40,010 nucleotides of DNA, taken from Escherichia phage vB_Eco_Titus. Within the stretch, counting starts at the first letter, position 1. Each line of letters opens with the position of its first letter. Below the pieces are notes generated by a model. It ran no database searches and had not been told where the DNA came from. It saw only the letters and a program-made list of their open reading frames with translations. A program made the position numbers and the translations under genes. Location: the sequence record OX090892. The stretch is one strand, 5' to 3'. Shown piece by piece: positions 6,187 through 34,810 of the stretch.

Positions 6187-6638
6187 AGACTAAATTTAAG
6201 AAACGTCCTGAGACTACCAAGATTGTAGTCCACTGTTCGGCTACCCGTGAGGACAAAGACTTTGGTGTGCGTGACATCCGCCTGTGGCATAAAGCTAAAG
6301 GTTGGCTGGATGTAGGCTACCACTACGTTATCAAGCGTGATGGTACTATCGAAGAAGGTCGTCCTGATGATGTAATCGGTGCAGGTGCAGAGGGTCACAA
6401 CACTGACTCAATCCACATCTGTCTGGTTGGTGGTCTGGACAAGGAGGGCAATACACTCGAAGGCTTCCACAATGCGTTCACTGACGCTCAGGAGGTGTCT
6501 CTGTTCCACCTGATTGCTGCAATGGAGGAGAAGTATCCTACCGTTCGCGTAGTGTGTGGACACCGCGACCTGCCTCGTGTAGCCAAAGCGTGTCCTTGCT
6601 TCGATGTCGTTAAGTGGCTGGAAGAAGTGGTAGTCTAA
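6183..6638 (+). CDS. 3.5: N-acetylmuramoyl-L-alanine amidase / lysozyme (T7 gene 3.5 homologue)
   Basis: 151 aa; VHCSAT...GVR.IR.WH...GWLDVGYH..IKRDGT.E.GR, H.....CPCFD match T7 lysozyme. Confidence 0.95.
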   Translation: MKTKFKKRPETTKIVVHCSATREDKDFGVRDIRLWHKAKGWLDVGYHYVIKRDGTIEEGRPDDVIGAGAEGHNTDSIHICLVGGLDKEGNTLEGFHNAFTDAQEVSLFHLIAAMEEKYPTVRVVCGHRDLPRVAKACPCFDVVKWLEEVVV

Positions 6639-6645
6639 GTTACAT

Positions 6646-6679
6646 ACTCAAGGTCATCCGTAATGGGTGGCCTTTATGA
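6646..6679 (+). ncRNA. RNase III processing-site hairpin
   Basis: ACTCAAGGTCATCCGTAATGGGTGGCCTTTATGA. Confidence 0.5.
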
Positions 6680-6682
6680 ATG

Positions 6683-6706
6683 TAATTAACACCCACTATT
6701 GGTATT
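6683..6706 (+). promoter_or_regulatory. Phage RNAP promoter (TAATTAACACCCACTATTGGTATT), +1 G at 6701
   Basis: Promoter motif family. Confidence 0.6.
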
Positions 6707-7239: not shown

Positions 7240-9315
7240 ATGATTTCCATCAAGGTATCGGATATAGAGACAGACGGGCTATTGGATACTGTCTCTAAGT
7301 TTCACTGTGCTGTGGTCATCGACTACTTCACTGGTGAGACAATCCGCTATGCCCCGTGGGACTTCAAGAAGTATATCGAAGACATCGAGCGGTGGTCTGC
7401 TGAAGGCCACTTGCTTGCATACCACAACGGTATCAAGTATGACGTTCCTGCCTTGAATATCCTGAAGAAGAAACACTTCGGTAAGCGGTTGAATATCAAC
7501 AAGAAATCATTTCTGGATACCCTAGTGTGTACCCGTCTTGTGTACTCAAACATCAAAGACATTGATGGGGGTCTGATGCGTTCAGGCCGCCTGCCGTCTA
7601 AGATGTTCGGGTCACACTCATTGAAGGCTTGGGGTTATCGCTTGGGAATCCTGAAGGGTGAGTACGGTGAGCAAGAGAACGCATGGGCTGAGTACACTGT
7701 GGACATGATGGACTACTGTGAGCAGGACGTTCGAGTAACAGTCTCTCTGCTTGAGAAGTTGTTCACCAATGAGTGGTACTTTACGCCTAACCAGTGGGGT
7801 GACTTCAGCGAGTCTATTCGCTTGGAGCATGACGCTGCGTGGGTTCTCGCTAAGATGGAACGCAACGGTTTTCCGTTTGACACCAAAAGCGCAGTCGCTC
7901 TGTACGCACAAGAAGCTGGGCATAAGCAAAACTTATATCAAGAGTTGGTTAAGACCTTCGGCTCATGGTACAGACCAAAAGGTGGTACTACTCCGTTCTT
8001 GCATCCGGTCACTGGTCAACCACTGGATAAGTATCCTCGCGTTAAATACCCTAAGGCTGGCTCACTGTTCACTAAGTCCGGTAAGCTGTCTTCAACGTTG
8101 TATTACGAAGGACGACCATTCACTCCGGTTGAGCATGTAACGTTTAACCCTGCGTCTCGTGACCACATCGTTAAGGTACTGAAAGACATCGGGTGGACTC
8201 CTGTAGACTTCACTGATGCGGGTAACCCTGTAGTAGACGATGATGCACTGTCTATCGTTATCGAACACAAGCTAGTACCTGAGGAGTACATTTCAAAGGT
8301 AGAGCTGATTCGTGAGTACCTGACGGTTAACAAACTGCTTGGTCAGTTAGCTGAAGGTGATAACGCTTGGTTGCGACATGAACGTGATGGTTATATCCAC
8401 GGTTCTGTTAACCCTAACGGCGCTGTAACTGGTCGTGCGACTCACGCATTCCCTAACGTTGCACAGGTTCCTTCAATCCGTAAGTATCGGGGCAAAGAGT
8501 GTCGCTCATTGTTCGGCGCTTGTCACCACATCGGGAAAGACGGTAAGCCTTGGATTCAGGTTGGTGTCGATGCTAGTGGTCTTGAGCTTCGCTGCTTGGG
8601 TCACTTCATGGCTCGCTATGATGACGGTGCTTACATTGACGTAATCCTGAACGGTGACATCCATTGGCAGAACTGTATTGCCGCTGGTCTTCATCCTAAC
8701 GTTCCACGGGATAAGCACAACGAAGCACACGAAGCCGCACGTAACAACGCTAAGACGTTTATCTATGGCTTCCTGTATGGTGCAGGTGCGGCCAAGATAG
8801 GTGAGATTGTAGGTAAGTTTGGTGAGGAAGGTAAGAAGGCAGGTAAGGAACTCATTGAGTCATTCCTGAATGAAACACCTGCAATCAAGGCACTGCGTGA
8901 AGCTGTAGCTGACACCCTCATTGCCGATGCTAAGTGGGTCAACGGTGAGCAACAAATCAAGTGGAAGCGTAAGTGGATTCGTGGTATGGATGGCCGTAAG
9001 GTTCACGTCCGGTCACCACACGCTGCGTTGAACACTCTGTTGCAATCTGCTGGTGCTCTCATTTGTAAGAAATGGGTAGTCGTACTTGTGCAGATGCTTG
9101 AGGACAAAGGCTATGTACACGGCTGGGATGGAGACTTTGCGCTAATGGGCTGGATTCATGACGAGGTTCAGATTGCAGCTCGCACTGAGGAAATCGCACA
9201 CGACATCATTAACATGTGTCAAGAGGCTATGCGATTTGTTGGTGAATCGTGGAACTTCCGGTGTCCGTTAGATACCGAAGGTAAGATTGGCCGACATTGG
9301 GCTGATTGTCACTGA
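7240..9315 (+). CDS. 5: DNA polymerase (T7 gene 5 homologue)
   Basis: 691 aa; extensive identity to remembered T7 gp5 (VSDIE..LL..V.KFHC, HNG.KYDVPAL, thioredoxin-binding loop, KTFIYGFLYGAG, HDE.Q, ending CH). Confidence 0.95.
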   Translation: MISIKVSDIETDGLLDTVSKFHCAVVIDYFTGETIRYAPWDFKKYIEDIERWSAEGHLLAYHNGIKYDVPALNILKKKHFGKRLNINKKSFLDTLVCTRLVYSNIKDIDGGLMRSGRLPSKMFGSHSLKAWGYRLGILKGEYGEQENAWAEYTVDMMDYCEQDVRVTVSLLEKLFTNEWYFTPNQWGDFSESIRLEHDAAWVLAKMERNGFPFDTKSAVALYAQEAGHKQNLYQELVKTFGSWYRPKGGTTPFLHPVTGQPLDKYPRVKYPKAGSLFTKSGKLSSTLYYEGRPFTPVEHVTFNPASRDHIVKVLKDIGWTPVDFTDAGNPVVDDDALSIVIEHKLVPEEYISKVELIREYLTVNKLLGQLAEGDNAWLRHERDGYIHGSVNPNGAVTGRATHAFPNVAQVPSIRKYRGKECRSLFGACHHIGKDGKPWIQVGVDASGLELRCLGHFMARYDDGAYIDVILNGDIHWQNCIAAGLHPNVPRDKHNEAHEAARNNAKTFIYGFLYGAGAAKIGEIVGKFGEEGKKAGKELIESFLNETPAIKALREAVADTLIADAKWVNGEQQIKWKRKWIRGMDGRKVHVRSPHAALNTLLQSAGALICKKWVVVLVQMLEDKGYVHGWDGDFALMGWIHDEVQIAARTEEIAHDIINMCQEAMRFVGESWNFRCPLDTEGKIGRHWADCH

Positions 9316-11552: not shown

Positions 11553-11576
11553 TAATTAACACCCACTATTGGAGGT
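11553..11576 (+). promoter_or_regulatory. Phage RNAP promoter (TAATTAACACCCACTATTGGAGGT), +1 G at 11571
   Basis: Promoter motif family; equivalent of T7 phi6.5. Confidence 0.6.
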
Positions 11577-11846: not shown

Positions 11847-12095
11847 ATGTGTTTCTTTAAACCGCCTAAGATTGATATGCCTGAGACACCAACTCCTGCC
11901 CCACTTCCGCCTCCTGTTGAGGATGCACCTAAAGTGGAGTCCGTAGAGTTCGGAGGTAAGAAGGAATCAGTCGAGGACGTAACCGGAGTTAAAGGGTCTG
12001 GTAGTTCTGGTAAGTCTGCCCTGAAGATTCAGAAGACACCTAAACCAGTAACCAACACTACCGGAGCAAACGTGGGTCTTAACACTGTACGGTGA
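11847..12095 (+). CDS. 6.7: gp6.7-like virion protein (82 aa)
   Basis: TAAGGAGG RBS; MCFF.P.KI......VESVEFGG resembles remembered T7 gp6.7 N-terminus. Confidence 0.6.
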   Translation: MCFFKPPKIDMPETPTPAPLPPPVEDAPKVESVEFGGKKESVEDVTGVKGSGSSGKSALKIQKTPKPVTNTTGANVGLNTVR

Positions 12096-12508
12096 TACTT
12101 ATGGGACTGACAACTAAGTGTTTCTTTCGTGGTGCGGACGAACCGCTGTACACGTATGAAGCTCTCCATAAGTATTGCCTTCAGGAGTCACAAGACGTGG
12201 AACGTACCAAAGAGGTCTTAGAAGGTCTGCACCGTTATGAGGTGTACGTCTATGACCAAGATGGTAACGTTATTGCCTGCACTTACCTTGTACGGTATTT
12301 GTGTATGCACCACGGAGATGTGATTGCTTTGGCTGCTTTGTGGATAGACAAGTCATATCGTGATGCTGTGTCCGTACAGAAAGCGATTACGCGGGAGGTT
12401 GTCACTGTGTGTAAGATGTTCGGTATTACCAAATATCAGCGCAGTAAACACCTCTCAAAGACTAAACAACTGATAATCACAAAGGAGATACCAAATGGGA
12501 TTCATTAA
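12092..12508 (+). CDS. gp7-like protein (138 aa)
   Basis: Start coupled to gp6.7 stop (GTGA; alternative ATG at 12101); size and position match T7 gene 7. Confidence 0.5.
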   Translation: MILMGLTTKCFFRGADEPLYTYEALHKYCLQESQDVERTKEVLEGLHRYEVYVYDQDGNVIACTYLVRYLCMHHGDVIALAALWIDKSYRDAVSVQKAITREVVTVCKMFGITKYQRSKHLSKTKQLIITKEIPNGIH

Positions 12509-12773
12509 GAAAACCTTTAAGAAACTGACTGGTGCGGATGACGCTGAGAAACGCGCCCGTGAGGAAGCTGAACGTGCTCGCCGTGAGCAAGAAGAAGCTA
12601 TCCGTAAACAAGCTGAATTGGACGCTGCTCAACGTGCTGCTACCGAATTGGCTGGTGAGCAAGAGGTTCAAGCGGAGTCTGTAGGTGACACCACTGAGTC
12701 AACACAAAAAAAAGAAACTACGGGCAGGTCGAAAGTCCTTGACTGTGGCGCGTGCTGGCGGCTCTGGTATTAA
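12495..12773 (+). CDS. 7.3: gp7.3-like protein with apparent frameshift (homologous C-terminus is in the +1 frame, ending 12780)
   Basis: AAAGGAG RBS; N-term MGFIKKTFKKL; after the A8 run at 12706-12713 the +1 frame encodes ..KKLRAGRKSLTVARAGGSGINI, matching remembered T7 gp7.3 C-terminus ..SLSVARSSGGGINI, while frame 0 gives an unrelated tail. Confidence 0.55.
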   Translation: MGFIKKTFKKLTGADDAEKRAREEAERARREQEEAIRKQAELDAAQRAATELAGEQEVQAESVGDTTESTQKKETTGRSKVLDCGACWRLWY

Positions 12774-12791
12774 CATCTAAGGTGGTAGTCT

Positions 12792-14396
12792 ATGGCTGAA
12801 GTTAAACGTGAAGGTCTAGCTGCTGAAGGTGCAGCCAAGACATATGAGCGTTTGAAGAATGACCGTAACGACTACGTGACCCGTGCAGAGGACTGTGCCA
12901 AGTACACCATTCCTAGTCTGTTCCCTAAGGATTCAGACGATGGTGGTACGAGTTATACGACTCCTTGGCAGTCCATTGGTGCTCGCGGTCTGAACAACAT
13001 TAGCGCAAAGGTAAACCTAGCGTTGTTCCCTGTAGGTGCGCCTTTCTTCAAACTGAATATCTCTGAGCTAGAGCTGAAGCAAATCATCACCGATTCGTCT
13101 GCACTTCAAGATGTAGCACAAGGTCTGTCGATGGTTGAGCGTATTGTTCTTAGCTACATGGAGGCCAACGGTTATCGAACTTCTCTGGTTGAAGCTATTC
13201 GTCAACTCTTTGTTAGCGGTAACGTGCTGCTGTACGTGACCAATCCTGACGAGATGATGGATGGTGAAATGGCTGGTCTGAAGGTCTACCGATTGCCGTC
13301 CTATGTAGTTGAACGAGATGGATTCGATAACGTCTTGCAGATTGTAGCAGTCGATAAGATTGCCCGCGTAGCGTTACCTGAAGACATCCAATCTGCTATC
13401 GCTGAGGAGACTACCGATGAAAACCTGACAGAAGAAGTCGAGATTTACACTCACATCTACCGTAACTCTGAGACACAAATGTTCACAGTTTATCAGGAGA
13501 TTGAGGGTGAAATCGTAGCTGGCTCTGAAGGTGAGTACCCATTGGATGCTTGCCCTTGGATTCCTGTACGTCTTATCAAGATGCCTAACGAGGACTATGG
13601 ACGTTCGTTCGTAGAAGAATACCTCGGTGACTTGAAGTCATTGGAGGCTCTGTACGAGGCTATGATTAAGATGTCCATGATTGCCGCTAAGGTTCTGTTC
13701 ATGGTTAACCCTAACGGACAGACTCAGGTTCGCCGTATGGCTAAGGCCAACACAGGTGACTTTGTAGCTGGTCGTAAGGAAGACATCGGAGTATTCCAGT
13801 TAGAGAAACAACAGGACTTCAACACAGCGAAGATTGTAGCTGACACCATTGAGGCTCGCTTGTCGTATGCCTTCATGTTGAACTCTGCGGTACAACGCGG
13901 TGGTGACCGTGTTACTGCTGAGGAGATTCGCTATGTGGCTGGTGAATTGGAGGACACTCTGGGTGGTATCTATTCGTTACTGTCCCAAGAGTTACAGATG
14001 CCTTTAGTCCGCATCCTGTTGCGTGTACTGGAAGCTACCTCGAAGATTCCTAACTTGCCTAAGGAAGCTGTTGAACCTGCTGTTGCTACTGGTCTGGAAG
14101 CTCTGGGTCGTGGTCATGACCTTGACAAGCTGAATATGTTCGTTAACGGTATTGCTACTCTGTCTGCAATCCAAGACGAAGACCTGAACATGCGTGACAT
14201 TAAGATGCGCTACGCTAACTCTCTGGGTATGGACACTGCTGGTATGATTCTGACTCCTGAGGAGAAACAACAGAAGATGGCTGAAATGGCTCAACAACAG
14301 GCCATGATGCAAGGTGGTGCCGCTGCGGGTGGCGTAATGGGTCAAGCTGGTGGTCAAGCAATGGCTGAACAAGCTGCTCAGATGATGCAACAATAA
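12792..14396 (+). CDS. 8: Portal (head-to-tail connector) protein (T7 gene 8 homologue)
   Basis: 534 aa; YERLKNDR..Y..RA..CA.YTIPSLFPKDSD......TPWQ..GARGLNN match T7 gp8. Confidence 0.95.
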   Translation: MAEVKREGLAAEGAAKTYERLKNDRNDYVTRAEDCAKYTIPSLFPKDSDDGGTSYTTPWQSIGARGLNNISAKVNLALFPVGAPFFKLNISELELKQIITDSSALQDVAQGLSMVERIVLSYMEANGYRTSLVEAIRQLFVSGNVLLYVTNPDEMMDGEMAGLKVYRLPSYVVERDGFDNVLQIVAVDKIARVALPEDIQSAIAEETTDENLTEEVEIYTHIYRNSETQMFTVYQEIEGEIVAGSEGEYPLDACPWIPVRLIKMPNEDYGRSFVEEYLGDLKSLEALYEAMIKMSMIAAKVLFMVNPNGQTQVRRMAKANTGDFVAGRKEDIGVFQLEKQQDFNTAKIVADTIEARLSYAFMLNSAVQRGGDRVTAEEIRYVAGELEDTLGGIYSLLSQELQMPLVRILLRVLEATSKIPNLPKEAVEPAVATGLEALGRGHDLDKLNMFVNGIATLSAIQDEDLNMRDIKMRYANSLGMDTAGMILTPEEKQQKMAEMAQQQAMMQGGAAAGGVMGQAGGQAMAEQAAQMMQQ

Positions 14397-14417
14397 TTAA
14401 CACCCACTATTGGAGAG
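14394..14417 (+). promoter_or_regulatory. Phage RNAP promoter (TAATTAACACCCACTATTGGAGAG), +1 G at 14412, followed by 5' leader hairpin
   Basis: Promoter family; transcript start GGAGAGA..TCTCTCC (14412-14436) can form a 7-bp stem. Confidence 0.6.
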
Positions 14418-16696: not shown

Positions 16697-16730
16697 AAGG
16701 GGAGGCCATTAGGTCTTCCCTTTTTTTTTC
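16697..16730 (+). terminator. Tphi-like terminator (GC-rich hairpin plus T9)
   Basis: AGGGGAGGCCATTAGGTCTTCCC forms a ~9-bp stem (two G-U), followed by TTTTTTTTT, immediately after capsid stop as in T7. Confidence 0.7.
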
Positions 16731-17358: not shown

Positions 17359-19749
17359 ATGGGACTTGTCTCACAATCAATCAAGAACCTGAAGGGTGGT
17401 ATCAGTCAACAACCTGACATCCTTCGGTTTGCAGACCAAGGGGAGAAGCAAGTCAATGCGTTCTCCTCAGAGGTTGAGGGTCTACAGAAACGACCTCCAA
17501 GCACTCACGTCAACCGATTGGCAGACCACGGTGCTCTCAGTGAGAAACCTTATTGTCACGTAATCAACCGTGATGAACAAGAGAAGTACGTTCTGTTCTT
17601 CGGGAACAACACTGTGTACGCATACAATCTATTGACAGGTTTGTATGTTCCAGTGAACTTCCCTAGTGGTGCTTCTTACATTGCCACTGCGAACCCGCGT
17701 AAAGACTTACGAATGGTTACCGTAGCGGACTTCACCTTTATCATCAACCGTAATGTGGTAGTACAGGAAGGTTCCACTCGGACACCGATGCACTACCAAC
17801 AAGGTAAACATGGTCTTGTATATTGCCGTGGTGGCCAATATGCTCGTACCTATCAGATTATTCTGAATGGTGCAGTGCAGGCTACCTATACGGCTCCACT
17901 AGGTGACCAAGTAGCCCATGCCAAAGAGATTGACACTCAGTTTATCTTGACTAAGCTGGCAGAGAACTTCAACGCTAACCTAAGCCAACACGGATGGTCA
18001 GCGTCAGTTCAGGATGGTTACCTGTGGATTCAAGCAGGTGGAAACACTATCACTTCCCTGAAGGTAGTGGACGGCTTCAACGGGCAACTGTTGGATTGTA
18101 TAACTTATTCAGCACAGAAGACCGTAGACCTTCCGGTTACAGCTCCCGATAAATACCAAGTGTTAATCTCAGGAGATGCAGCTCAAGGTCAGGATGACTT
18201 CTGGGTTCAGTATGATGGTCAACGCCGTGTATGGACTGAAATCCCTGCACCTAACATCATTGCTGACCTGAACAAGAATACCATGCCTTGGGTGATGATT
18301 CGTGAGGCAGACGGTAACTTTACCCTACGTCCTACCGATTGGTCTACCCGTGGTAGTGGTGACGATGACACTAACCCGATGCCTTCCTTTGTGGGTCAGA
18401 CAATCAACGATGTGTTCTTCTTCCGTAACCGTTTAGGTTTTCTGAGCGGTGAGAACGTTGTGATGTCTGAGGCAGGGTCATACTTCAACTTCTTCCCTCG
18501 GTCTGTTGCTGTGACTTCTGATAGTGACCCTATTGACGTTGCTGTATCAACTAACCGGATTAGTATCTTGAAGTACGCTGTGCCATTCTCTGAGGAACTG
18601 CTATTATGGTCTGACCAAAGCCAGTTCGTAATGACTGCCGATGGTATTCTGACTCCTACGTCTGTCCGCTTGGATATGACCACTGAGTTCGAGGTGACCG
18701 ATAGTGCTCGCCCTTACGGTATTGGCCGTGGTGTTTACTTCATTGCACCTCGCGCTAAGTTCTCCTCAGTGCGGCGTTACTATGCTGTGCAGGACGTTAC
18801 TCAGGTGAAGAACGCTGAGGACGTTACAGCTCACGTACCGAGTTACATCCCTAATGGTGTACACAAAGTCACCGGTAGTTCCATTGAGAACTTGCTTACC
18901 GTGTTGACCGAGGGTGCTCCACATAAGGTGTTCCTTTACAAGTTCCTGTACTTGGAAGAACAGATTGCCCAGCAGTCTTGGTCTGAGTGGGACTTTGGGG
19001 AAGGTTCTCGTGTACTGTGCTGTGACATGATGGGAGCTATTATGCACCTCGTGATTGATGCCCCTTCTGGTATCTACATGGAACGCATTGAGTTCACTCA
19101 GAACACTAAGGACTATCCTAACGAACCGTACCGTTTGTATATGGACAGAAAGATTCGTTACACCATCCCTAGTGGCGCATACAACGATGACAACTTTGAG
19201 ACTACTATCTACTTGCAGAACGTGTATGGTGCTAAGCCTCAGTACGGTAAGTATTTCGTAGTGTTAGAATCTGGTGTCGTGTATGAGTTCGACCCGCCTG
19301 ATGGTGGTTGGGCTGCGTCAGATGGTGGTCTTCGCATCAACGGAAACCTTGAAGGTTACAACGTGTTCATCGGTGAGCAGTACACCATGCTGTATCAGTT
19401 CTCCAAGTTCCTTATTAAGTCTGTTGATACTAATGGTGGTACAACTACTGAGGACATCGGTCGCTTACAATTGCGCCGCGCTTGGGTTAACTACGACAAG
19501 TCAGGCGACTTCCGTATCCAAGTTGAGAATCAAGGTCGAGTGTTCACGTACAACATGACAGGTCGCCGCTTAGGGACTAAACAACTGGTACTTGGTGAGC
19601 AGAACCTAGATACAGGACAATTTAAGTACCCTGTGTCAGGTAACGCCAAGGTGGTTAACATTACGTTGCTATCCGATGCCCCAAGCCCTGTTGCTATCAT
19701 TGGTGGTGGATGGGAAGGTAACTACATCAGACGTTCATCTGGTATTTAA
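17359..19749 (+). CDS. 12: Tail tubular protein B (T7 gene 12 homologue)
   Basis: 796 aa, TAAGGAGG RBS; size and position match T7 gp12 (794 aa). Confidence 0.85.
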   Translation: MGLVSQSIKNLKGGISQQPDILRFADQGEKQVNAFSSEVEGLQKRPPSTHVNRLADHGALSEKPYCHVINRDEQEKYVLFFGNNTVYAYNLLTGLYVPVNFPSGASYIATANPRKDLRMVTVADFTFIINRNVVVQEGSTRTPMHYQQGKHGLVYCRGGQYARTYQIILNGAVQATYTAPLGDQVAHAKEIDTQFILTKLAENFNANLSQHGWSASVQDGYLWIQAGGNTITSLKVVDGFNGQLLDCITYSAQKTVDLPVTAPDKYQVLISGDAAQGQDDFWVQYDGQRRVWTEIPAPNIIADLNKNTMPWVMIREADGNFTLRPTDWSTRGSGDDDTNPMPSFVGQTINDVFFFRNRLGFLSGENVVMSEAGSYFNFFPRSVAVTSDSDPIDVAVSTNRISILKYAVPFSEELLLWSDQSQFVMTADGILTPTSVRLDMTTEFEVTDSARPYGIGRGVYFIAPRAKFSSVRRYYAVQDVTQVKNAEDVTAHVPSYIPNGVHKVTGSSIENLLTVLTEGAPHKVFLYKFLYLEEQIAQQSWSEWDFGEGSRVLCCDMMGAIMHLVIDAPSGIYMERIEFTQNTKDYPNEPYRLYMDRKIRYTIPSGAYNDDNFETTIYLQNVYGAKPQYGKYFVVLESGVVYEFDPPDGGWAASDGGLRINGNLEGYNVFIGEQYTMLYQFSKFLIKSVDTNGGTTTEDIGRLQLRRAWVNYDKSGDFRIQVENQGRVFTYNMTGRRLGTKQLVLGEQNLDTGQFKYPVSGNAKVVNITLLSDAPSPVAIIGGGWEGNYIRRSSGI

Positions 19750-19766
19750 CACCCACTATTGGAGAC
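19743..19766 (+). promoter_or_regulatory. Phage RNAP promoter (variant TATTTAACACCCACTATTGGAGAC), +1 G at 19761, with leader hairpin
   Basis: Promoter family; overlaps gp12 stop; leader GAGGGTCACT..AGTGGCTCTC can form a ~10-bp stem; drives dNK and gene 13. Confidence 0.55.
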
Positions 19767-26600: not shown

Positions 26601-27950
26601 TTGGTGACTGCAATTCGTGGTCTGCAAGATTGGTCGTTCCTGTCTAACTCTGCGCAGATGTGGGTGAACAACCTAACTGAAGTATCAGGGTGGGCAACTA
26701 ACCGGATGATGTTTGTGGCTCGTAATGGTGTCAAAGGTCTGAACCAACTGTTGAACCCAGAAACGAAGTTCTCTAAGGCTGACCTGAAGGACTTTGCTGA
26801 TGGTCTGTTCGGCTATGACCTGAACACTTCGTTGTTACCTTCCTACCGGAACATCAAAGACCAACTGATTAAGACAGGTGCTAGCGAACGTGCTGCTTCA
26901 ATCGCTGCTGGTATTCGTACAAGTGGTGCATTGGCTGCAAGTCATAAGTACAACATCTACACTAAGCTGTTGAACAAGACTACTGAAGGTCTGGTCAATA
27001 TGGCACGTAGTGGTGTACTGAGTGACATCACACACGAAGCATTCGGTGGTGTGCGTATCAATAAGGCTATCTTGAGGAATGCCTCAATCACTGAGAAACA
27101 GTATGCAGGTGTCTTGGATATGTTACGTCAGCACATCAAAGTGCAAGACGGTAAGTATGTCCCTGATGTGCAGGCCATTAAGCGTGACGTTAGGTCTAAT
27201 GACCTGTGGCGCTTAGCGGACTACATTGCGTCTGACTCTGTGATGCGAACAAACAAGGTGGGCTTCAACTATGTGGCTAAACCTAATGCCTTTATGAACC
27301 TTGCGTTGCAGTTCAAGTCCTTCATGTTGAAGGGTCTGAATGCTCGCACTGTTCGTATGTGGCATGAGTCATTCCAAGGTAAGTCTATTGACAACGCTAT
27401 GCGAGTTATCGTTGGTGCTGGTATCACTGGTGCTATCTGGGCTGCACAGGCTCACTACCGTTCTATTGGTATTCCACCTGAGCAACGCCAAGAGTACCTT
27501 GAGCGTATGTTAGACCCTAGCATGGTAGCTTATCAGGCATTCTCACGTAGTGCTGAGATGGGTACTGTACTTGGTGGTGTAAACCTCGCGTTGACTCCAT
27601 TCACAGACAGTGACCTGTTCCGTTTAGGTCGTTCTACCGTAGACCCTGTACGGGCTATGAAAGGACGCTCACCTTTACGTGCAGACGTTCTGAATCAACA
27701 AGCTGTCGGTGAACAACTTGGTGACGCTGTGTACAACACAATGCCAGCCTTGAAGTTCATTGGTACTGCTGGTGTCCTTCCGGCTAACGCTGTGCAATGG
27801 GCACTTGCCGACCACGGCTATCAGTCTGACATGCAGGCTCGTACCTTCTTTGAGAACTTAGCGTCTGCTGCTCCTAATGCTCCTGAGATTCAGTGGTTAA
27901 TCGGGATGATGGCACAAGATGCAGGTGCTTCAGGTAAGGGTATGTGGTAA
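23625..27950 (+). CDS. 16: Internal virion protein C with N-terminal lytic transglycosylase domain (T7 gene 16 homologue)
   Basis: 1441 aa; N-terminal SLT-like motif (..GLFQFTKTTWDAM..), position before tail fibre. Confidence 0.85.
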   Translation: MSYSTDTSSTSMYQRLKALSGDTHGLITTAGNELGLPEGQALKVGMIESGLKADASSGVAKGLFQFTKTTWDAMKQKYGAEYGIDPTASRTDPVANTILGVAYLKENATNYQSTFGKDPELVDLYMGHFLGQSGRNQFLKAMEQNPNAPAYAVVGKRSVANNKDVFFKKDGTARTLNEVYQMYSNKLSATELEQDMKTDRLKMDIQDELLWKTLGRSQDGSANATLSTGTAPSTPNFDVSLSDSKPQSIADALSSYGLQKPEDTVEKDERSFFDGAWEAAKAEIRLSPIGRDLREKYIQSGAPVEWDSAAAALRESFSGLSQSEMFTGNINPLEPMDITPEMWNTILSNGVDKKWMEYIKMSANPQDLVNRVQMAQEMQRADQARQAAATGGQLVGGIAGAFGDPLTFATGGTSAGGSLMTRLFVAGTEAAAGNAANEFSLSQETRGGVETNIAAAALGGFAGGVALRGLGEAFTNMSAAGRMRARQESIDAGVPDVTARPDVEVPEGKTWVEKPDEAGAVVDELGNTHSATSFGNPKVMEAVEANKGIELGGLNSISYDLLRSESTETRTIAQDLVRSPTGIKGGGSGVTRMTAEDYLGRLEGQDNLIYTQAMKAREKAYEHSMFDLQGGRNAREAMERQVVEAIESGDFSRLTPEMKEYADLLTTNFTEKHYAASNIAALSGNADAPNVLTSTIDPKRYVPAIYEEGKVIDAKMRFDPEGKYEGLYNEIQANWTAQWKNNHNGVRERMKALFDEDNSKFAEDLRAKLTKDKELDVVPEGKQKSARMEKQEGIQAKISKAEELRQKNAVKLQKARKPETRAKYEGLVQKYDKQLSELKTELEMTKPMDEDKLLEIYAQRYIERKSYGIAKNGEFTHSSSLEDVDLSDSLVGIENNNFTQERNIFDMAYESIAKDGEPFSLNDLRHFDMMNAMSMYNKRMNGDIAIHASTGKTTKDLKDAIVALPEGRDRTNLDQLTRLITGRRRAEDPASALVTAIRGLQDWSFLSNSAQMWVNNLTEVSGWATNRMMFVARNGVKGLNQLLNPETKFSKADLKDFADGLFGYDLNTSLLPSYRNIKDQLIKTGASERAASIAAGIRTSGALAASHKYNIYTKLLNKTTEGLVNMARSGVLSDITHEAFGGVRINKAILRNASITEKQYAGVLDMLRQHIKVQDGKYVPDVQAIKRDVRSNDLWRLADYIASDSVMRTNKVGFNYVAKPNAFMNLALQFKSFMLKGLNARTVRMWHESFQGKSIDNAMRVIVGAGITGAIWAAQAHYRSIGIPPEQRQEYLERMLDPSMVAYQAFSRSAEMGTVLGGVNLALTPFTDSDLFRLGRSTVDPVRAMKGRSPLRADVLNQQAVGEQLGDAVYNTMPALKFIGTAGVLPANAVQWALADHGYQSDMQARTFFENLASAAPNAPEIQWLIGMMAQDAGASGKGMW

Positions 27951-27971
27951 TTAACACCCACTATTGGAGAG
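27948..27971 (+). promoter_or_regulatory. Phage RNAP promoter (TAATTAACACCCACTATTGGAGAG), +1 G at 27966, with leader hairpin
   Basis: Overlaps gp16 stop; leader GAGGGAG..CTCCCT can pair; phi17 equivalent. Confidence 0.6.
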
Positions 27972-31914: not shown

Positions 31915-32054
31915 ACCGTATCGTAACTTGGGTTCTGTTGGTCTGTGTGTGGACTGCTGTTCTGCTGAGTCTCAGTGGTTGCACCATTATGATTGACAGT
32001 CCAAACTCACAACCAATGGTTGAATGTGGTGACTTGTTAGGTATCACCCTGTAA
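31911..32054 (+). CDS. Small lipoprotein (47 aa), possible minimal outer-membrane spanin or exclusion lipoprotein
   Basis: ATG overlapping terS stop (ATGA), GGAGGT 8 nt upstream; signal peptide MNRIVTWVLLVCVWTAVLLSLSG with lipobox LSGC; mature part ~24 aa; not in ORF track. Confidence 0.45.
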   Translation: MNRIVTWVLLVCVWTAVLLSLSGCTIMIDSPNSQPMVECGDLLGITL

Positions 32055-32062
32055 GTTATATA

Positions 32063-32097
32063 CTCAAGGTCATTCGCGTAGAGTGGCCTTTATGAAT
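32063..32097 (+). ncRNA. RNase III processing-site hairpin (R18.5-like)
   Basis: TACTCAAGGTCATTCGCGTAGAGTGGCCTTTATGA. Confidence 0.5.
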
Positions 32098-32124
32098 ATA
32101 ACTAGCAACTAAGGAGGTTAAATT

Positions 32125-34630: not shown

Positions 34631-34810
34631 TCTCACATATCAAGACCCATTTAATCCCCCCATAGGGGTCAAACCTTATGTCCATCCCTTATGTCATTCC
34701 CTAAGTCTATCATTTTGTCTATCAATAGGTTTTAACTCTCGGTTGAGGTGGGGACAATAGGTGGAGACTATGGGTTTGTATCTCTATGTCTCCCTATCTG
34801 TATAGACCTT
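34631..34810 (+). repeat. Terminal repeat, single collapsed copy (approximate bounds)
   Basis: Starts TCTCACA...CCCCCCATAGGGGTC and contains GTCTCCCTATCTGT, matching remembered T7 terminal repeat landmarks; only one copy in window, consistent with a circularised or concatemer-junction representation. Confidence 0.4.

Follow-up and report, generated by a model that had tools for sequence, protein, structure and literature searches.

A one-base expansion of an A-run very likely disrupts gene 7.3 in the sequence of Escherichia phage vB_Eco_Titus

Gene 7.3 and its neighbours

The window, that is, the whole 40,010-nucleotide stretch of Escherichia phage vB_Eco_Titus DNA that was analysed (record OX090892), carries on its plus strand the gene order 6.7, 7, 7.3, 8, the same as in T7. 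A gene 6.7-like small virion protein of 82 aa (11847..12095) matches phrog_1391 with an E value of 5e-13, and a gene of identical length in Logan contigs gives a weak match to PF17570 T7-like_gp67. The gene for the 138-aa gene 7-like 'host range and adsorption' protein that follows (12092..12508; phrog_2746, E 1.2e-19) is annotated in the sister phages Mak and Bam and overlaps the start of the gene 7.3 homologue. The latter encodes a virion/tail assembly ('host range') protein, spans 12495..12780 and is interrupted by a +1 frameshift. Gene 8, for the 534-aa portal or head-tail connector, occupies 12792..14396 (phrog_449, E 1e-195; PF12236), and its Shine-Dalgarno sequence overlaps the gene 7.3 stop. 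In the Logan contig DRR848672 an HNH endonuclease gene (L013 1262-1672; 136 aa, PF13392) that overlaps the gene 7.3 stop lies between gene 7.3 and the portal gene; T7 has its gene 7.7 at the same position, and Titus has no such gene.

Inspection of the sequence places a homopolymer of eight A's (A8) at 12706..12713 on the plus strand; no other coding homopolymer of the 40-kb genome exceeds 5 nt. With A7 instead of A8, gene 7.3 is a single 285-nt ORF of 94 codons and a stop. As it stands, the frame-0 ORF from ATG 12495 (12495..12773, plus strand; 92 aa, deposited as CAH7774601.1) encodes ..ESTQKK across the run, then departs from the family sequence and ends ..TQKKETTGRSKVLDCGACWRLWY, with its stop at 12771-12773. 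Residues 1-73 of CAH7774601.1 are thus authentic gp7.3, and residues 74-92 (ETTGRSKVLDCGACWRLWY) are out-of-frame. The extra A puts the last 21 codons of the gene out of frame, and these contain the best-conserved segment of the family, ..RKSLTVARAGGSGINI. The conserved C-terminus KKLRAGRKSLTVARAGGSGINI is encoded in the +1 frame at 12712..12780, with its stop codon at 12778-12780; this stretch corresponds to about residues 77-99 of T7 gp7.3 and includes the nozzle-anchoring loop 84-98. Within it, the motif KSL[ST]VAR-x2-G-x-GINI lies at 12736-12780, in the +1 frame relative to ATG 12495. A mechanically called +1-frame ORF of 31 aa begins at a GTG with GGAG 7 nt upstream, spans 12685..12780 on the same strand and ends ..KKKKLRAGRKSLTVARAGGSGINI. 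An earlier note on this DNA had described an apparent frameshift in a gp7.3-like gene at the A8, and had placed the run, the stop at 12780 and the translations of both frames correctly; the family C-terminus found in the +1 frame after the run supports that description.

Removal of one A from the Titus sequence yields a 94-aa protein (MGFIKK..STQKKKLRAGRKSLTVARAGGSGINI) that is identical to CAH6634577.1 of Mak and CAI9888951.1 of Bam. This repaired protein is matched over residues 1-94 by the 93-position profile of phrog_1320 'host range and adsorption protein' (E 6.6e-11), and it also matches phrog_10099 (E 1.6e-11) and the solved T7 chain 'Protein 7.3' in PDB 9jyz (E 0.0012). Its match to Pfam PF11653 VirionAssem_T7 covers residues 53-94 (E 9.8e-5) and, at 23.2 bits, is taken alone below the curated gathering cut-off of 25 bits. 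When the 92-aa frame-0 product was searched against the PHROG and Pfam profiles, no match to phrog_1320 or PF11653 was obtained. Like T7 gp7.3 (NP_041993), the repaired protein is small, lysine-rich and starts with MG..KK, and the two share the C-terminal motif [RK]KSL[ST]VAR..G.GINI-stop, although overall identity is only 38% and the Titus motif is out of frame as written. The T7 C-terminus that the earlier note had given, ..SLSVARSSGGGINI, is right, since gene 7.3 in NC_001604 ends ..GRKKARAGGKKSLSVARSSGGGINI; the resemblance of the +1 frame is well beyond chance, as the matches of the repaired protein to the family show. Taken together, the repaired protein has the profile match of the T7 gp7.3 family, and its gene has the expected position between gene 7 and portal gene 8, 3' of 6.7. 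In all 12 close relatives and all 23 complete genes from IMG/VR the C-terminal motif is in frame with the MG..KK N-terminus, but in Titus it is not. As the motif is present yet out of frame, the locus is a disrupted member of the gp7.3 family, an ordinary case of a disrupted copy of a known gene.

In a 2024 cryo-EM study, the only ordered part of T7 gp7.3 was a loop at its C-terminus (residues 84-98); six copies lie where adaptor and nozzle meet, every one of them held by two gp12 subunits, with K84 and K85 in contact with the DNA end (PMC11784390). Earlier biochemistry summarised in the same paper found gp7.3 to be required for the assembly of infective particles, and particles without gp7.3 do not adsorb (PMC11784390). 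For T7 alone, a role of the protein in tail (nozzle) assembly and its ejection at infection are known (PMC11784390). The A8 allele replaces exactly the segment that is homologous to the nozzle-binding residues of T7 (RKSLTVARAGGSGINI). By analogy, the 92-aa product would be devoid of the nozzle-binding function.

Length of the run in close and distant relatives

vB_Eco_Mak (OX001577.1) and vB_Eco_Bam (OW991346.2), which belong to Autographiviridae, Studiervirinae, are more than 99.9% identical to Titus, whose genome is a circular permutation of their records. Across 12480-12800 the three sequences are identical save for the length of the run, which is A8 in Titus and A7 in Mak and Bam. The gene and its flanks are therefore 100% identical at the DNA level to those of CAH6634577.1 and CAI9888951.1 apart from run length, and whereas the two sisters have A7 and one 94-aa ORF, the A8 of Titus leaves a 92-aa ORF whose tail is unrelated. 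A base-by-base comparison revealed 17 substitutions (14 of them clustered at 678-871) and two single-base indels between Titus and Mak, and about eight substitutions and two indels between Titus and Bam. Only two differences are private to Titus against both sisters. One is the extra A of the run; the other is a substitution at 9214, where Titus has A and the sisters G, so that ATG replaces GTG and Met replaces Val close to the DNA polymerase C-terminus (HDIIN[M/V]CQEAM). As a separate observation, 14 substitutions and a 1-nt indel (G vs GG at 904) within 678-904 set Mak apart from Titus and Bam; this cluster, which extends over the ligase gene's 3' end and the phage-promoter copy at 876-897, looks like a recombination patch.

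Ten environmental Logan contigs, which are independent assemblies from different public runs, show differences at about 2% of bases in gene 7.3, and all ten have A7 and an intact 94-aa ORF. These contigs are a biased sample, because they were retrieved through the intact protein. One of them, DRR848672, carries eight substitutions in the last 30 nt of gene 7.3 that leave the protein unchanged, and in this comparison the silent changes show purifying selection on the 94-aa frame. A look-up through the neighbouring 138-aa gene, chosen to avoid selecting for an intact gene 7.3, yielded no more than Bam and one Logan contig, and in each of them the 94-aa gene is intact. A less biased check agrees with the Logan contigs: in the 90%-identity protein cluster that includes the Titus frameshift product, there are five distinct sequences and Titus alone is frameshifted. 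No relative thus shares the frame-0 C-terminus, the finding by which the earlier note would have given up its frameshift, and the frameshift stands. The note had also proposed a length error in the run, with A7 or A10 as the true length. The comparison with all 12 close relatives bears out A7, and A10, which occurs in none of them, was rejected; on these aligned sequences the reference state of the run is settled as A7. Three further searches came back empty. A pattern of the flanks with 5-12 bases in place of the run had no match at all in IMG/VR or the JGI metagenomes, which is neutral with regard to A8; no contig encoding the exact 92-aa product was found in the assembly collection; and none of the gene 7.3 products of Titus, Mak and Bam is recorded from Logan.

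For more distant relatives, a second check of the less biased kind searched IMG/VR with a degenerate DNA pattern that covered nothing but the C-terminal motif, whatever the frame around it. The search returned 25 loci with 23 complete genes, every one of which is a single ORF of 79-116 aa that begins MG..KK and ends ..GINI. None of the 23 contains a homopolymer of more than 5 nt. In T7 and three Aeromonas phages gp7.3 is likewise a single ORF with no A-run at the aligned position, which reads GTG AAG AAG CGC in the Aeromonas phages and CGC AAG AAA GCT in T7. Among the sequences compared, the A-run is confined to the Titus clade.

Recoding and alternative gene products

We then considered whether the out-of-frame layout could be a working arrangement. 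The earlier note had named RNA polymerase slippage or ribosomal frameshifting among its explanations; in its designed form, the gene would normally lie out of frame and its two frames would be joined at the run, either by slipping polymerase or by a +1 shift of the ribosome. The run does have the properties of a slippery sequence, on which tRNA-Lys can re-pair perfectly after a +1 shift, T7-type RNA polymerases readily show poly(A) slippage (PMC6260861), and no other long coding homopolymer is left in a genome otherwise purged of runs. However, the gene is single-frame with A7 in 12 of 12 close relatives, so that the out-of-frame layout is private to the Titus record, and the 23 more distant IMG/VR genes are single ORFs without an A-run, as the run is also lacking from T7 and the Aeromonas phages. 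There is likewise no stable RNA structure near the run: 12660-12790 folds with a minimum free energy of -29.6 kcal/mol as against a shuffle mean of -33.2 (z = +1.03), which gives no hairpin or pseudoknot signal, and a reading of the sequence by eye revealed no strong Shine-Dalgarno-like element within a few nucleotides upstream of the run. The locus therefore offers a slippery sequence, but neither a conserved out-of-frame layout nor a stimulatory element. Robust ribosome sliding needs about A11 and is slight at A9-A10 (PMC4363877). The Titus run of A8 falls below that range, and sliding was rejected as a major route. The programmed frameshifts known from T7-like phages (the -1 shift of 10A/10B, and the 5.5-5.7 and 0.6A/B fusions; NC_001604) belong to the same virus group and likewise generate alternative products by a change of frame; unlike the Titus shift, which occurs in one record and destroys a conserved part, they are conserved and extend an already complete protein. 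A designed recoding site is thus unsupported, with the layout not conserved and the folding unremarkable, and we regard it as very improbable.

It is just as improbable that the 92-aa frame-0 protein with its tail ETTGRSKVLDCGACWRLWY is a functional product, either because the canonical C-terminus is dispensable or because the change alters host range. Its ORF is open and deposited as a 'host range protein', and its N-terminal 73 residues are intact, but the tail occurs in no other sequence of the 90%-identity cluster. The segment that it replaces is the most conserved part of the family and, in T7, the only ordered, nozzle-binding part (PMC11784390); moreover, the matches to phrog_1320 and PF11653 are lost. 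Least probable of all is a split gene, in which a 31-aa C-terminal module, initiated at the internal GTG 12685 and bearing the nozzle-binding loop, would make up for the truncation of the N-terminal product. The ORF 12685..12780 is present, its GGAG 7 nt upstream has a plausible Shine-Dalgarno spacing, and residues 84-98 alone are ordered in the T7 virion (PMC11784390). On the other side, the same GGAG-N7-GTG is found in the relatives with an intact gene and so did not evolve for a split product, initiation at GTG 12685 is a prediction from sequence, and a split gp7.3 was seen in none of the 23 IMG/VR genes. We therefore hold with high confidence that Titus gene 7.3 carries a private, non-programmed one-base expansion from A7 to A8, and that the 94-aa A7 form is the working form.

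Origin of the extra base and genome-wide observations

Homopolymers are classic sites of sequencing error and also hot spots of replication slippage. The extra base would have come from strand slippage on the homopolymer, and two origins have to be weighed, both of which the earlier note had named among its explanations. There is an even chance that it arose during replication of the phage DNA and is a real variant of the sequenced stock. Somewhat less probably, it came from library preparation, sequencing or consensus calling and is present only in the record; a minor share of the probability falls to other origins. The case for an artefact, to which we give a little less than even weight, draws on the homopolymer site, on the viability of the phage although the gene is essential in T7, and on uncurated assembly residue in the sister records. 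Since the gene is essential in T7, a frameshift should be strongly selected against, which counts against a real variant. That the phage is viable is nevertheless a weak objection, because a promoter copy lies upstream and T7 RNA polymerase slips on poly(A). The clean agreement with the sister genomes suggests good consensus quality and counts against an artefact. Among 120 runs of at least 4 nt in Titus, only the A-run of gene 7.3 differs from both sisters. That the other 119 show no private difference argues against a data set generally prone to homopolymer errors, and a systematic error of this kind (Nanopore or Ion Torrent) was rejected. A second length polymorphism among the three genomes is a C6 at 34656-34661, non-coding and near the genome end, which is C6 in Mak and C7 in Bam; it is one of only two further runs of at least 6 nt in Titus, and it counts for a real variant.

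The assembly residue takes the form of an overlap left in by the assembler, by which the records of Mak and Bam are 127 nt longer than that of Titus. In Mak the overlap is terminal (L003 1-127 and 40011-40137). In Bam it has become internal after re-orientation (L004 about 18734-18868 and 18862-18996), where a second copy of the portal gene's 3' end results, together with the spurious CDS BAMTRB_030. Overlaps of 127 nt probably point to SPAdes assembly of Illumina reads, which counts against an artefact.

If the extra A is real, the phage could remain viable because a T7-type RNA polymerase would slip on the A-run. The nearest upstream copy of the phage-promoter-like consensus AATTAACACCCACTATTGGAG, which is repeated 16-fold, lies on the plus strand at 11554..11575, a position analogous to T7 phi6.5, and the single-subunit RNA polymerase of the phage probably starts the transcription of gene 7.3 there. 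On an A8 template the frame is restored by the loss of one A or the gain of two, and transcripts with A7 or A10 would restore it in a minority of mRNAs. The need for gp7.3 may be low, as about six copies are seen per T7 virion. T7 RNA polymerase is known to rescue out-of-frame reporters at poly(A) tracts, with rescue of less than 20% for the deletion class and up to 90% for the insertion class (Koscielniak et al. 2018, PMC6260861), and its slippage bypasses indel mutations in the test gene mboIIM2 (Wons et al. 2015, PMC4417176). These non-programmed systems have in common with Titus an indel within a poly(A) tract and, presumably, a T7-type polymerase. The Titus defect (-1 A or +2 A) falls into the class that was rescued at less than 20% in the reporters (PMC6260861). 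The published data come from plasmid reporters, and rescue in Titus would be an extrapolation from them. We consider it unlikely that the A8 is real and that the phage is sustained by a slippage-prone polymerase restoring the frame in some gene 7.3 transcripts. If this were true, the conserved A7 tract would serve a tail-assembly ('host range') protein as a natural switch of contingency or dosage, and Titus would be a case from nature in which transcription rescues an essential virion gene of a T7-like phage. The retention of the A7 tract in 12 of 12 relatives of a homopolymer-purged genome leaves a small opening for the tract itself being functional.

The main value of the finding lies in curation, as CAH7774601.1 ('host range protein', 92 aa) results from a frameshift. 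The entry calls for annotation as a disrupted gene 7.3 or, once the reads have been checked, for correction to the 94-aa form. Titus is named as one representative of its tentative genus in at least one comparative study (PMC10974468), and an annotation error in it can therefore spread. The finding would gain biological weight only with a real A8, which would put to a natural test whether slippage of a T7-type polymerase can sustain an essential structural gene and would raise the question why the clade has kept an A7 tract while its genome is otherwise poor in such runs.

Several genome-wide features were observed alongside. Homopolymers are strongly depleted in Titus, with nine runs of at least 5 nt against about 123 expected and three of at least 6 nt against about 31 expected from a mononucleotide shuffle, which is not codon-aware. 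T7 (L021) is likewise depleted by the same measure, with 15 against about 122 and one against about 30. A T9 run at 16721-16729, just 3' of the major capsid gene, follows a GC-rich hairpin (GGGGAGGCC..GGTCTTCCC); it coincides with a terminator in the annotations of Mak and Bam (Mak_Term01), has its analogue in T7 Tphi, and is of the same length in Titus, Mak and Bam. The 22-nt consensus AATTAACACCCACTATTGGAGA occurs in 16 copies between 869 and 39769, for example at 11554-11575, 14395-14416, 19744-19765 and 27949-27970, and resembles T7-type late promoters (T7: TAATACGACTCACTATAGGGAGA); the sixteen copies are presumed to be promoters of the phage RNA polymerase. Finally, a 56-nt repeat is present three times with 61-82% identity (1955-2010, 6636-6691 and 32052-32107), each time intergenic and directly before a promoter copy. 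It contains the inverted-repeat core CAAGGTCAT..N..GTGGCCTTTATGA and could act as a site for RNase III-type processing or as a terminator hairpin.
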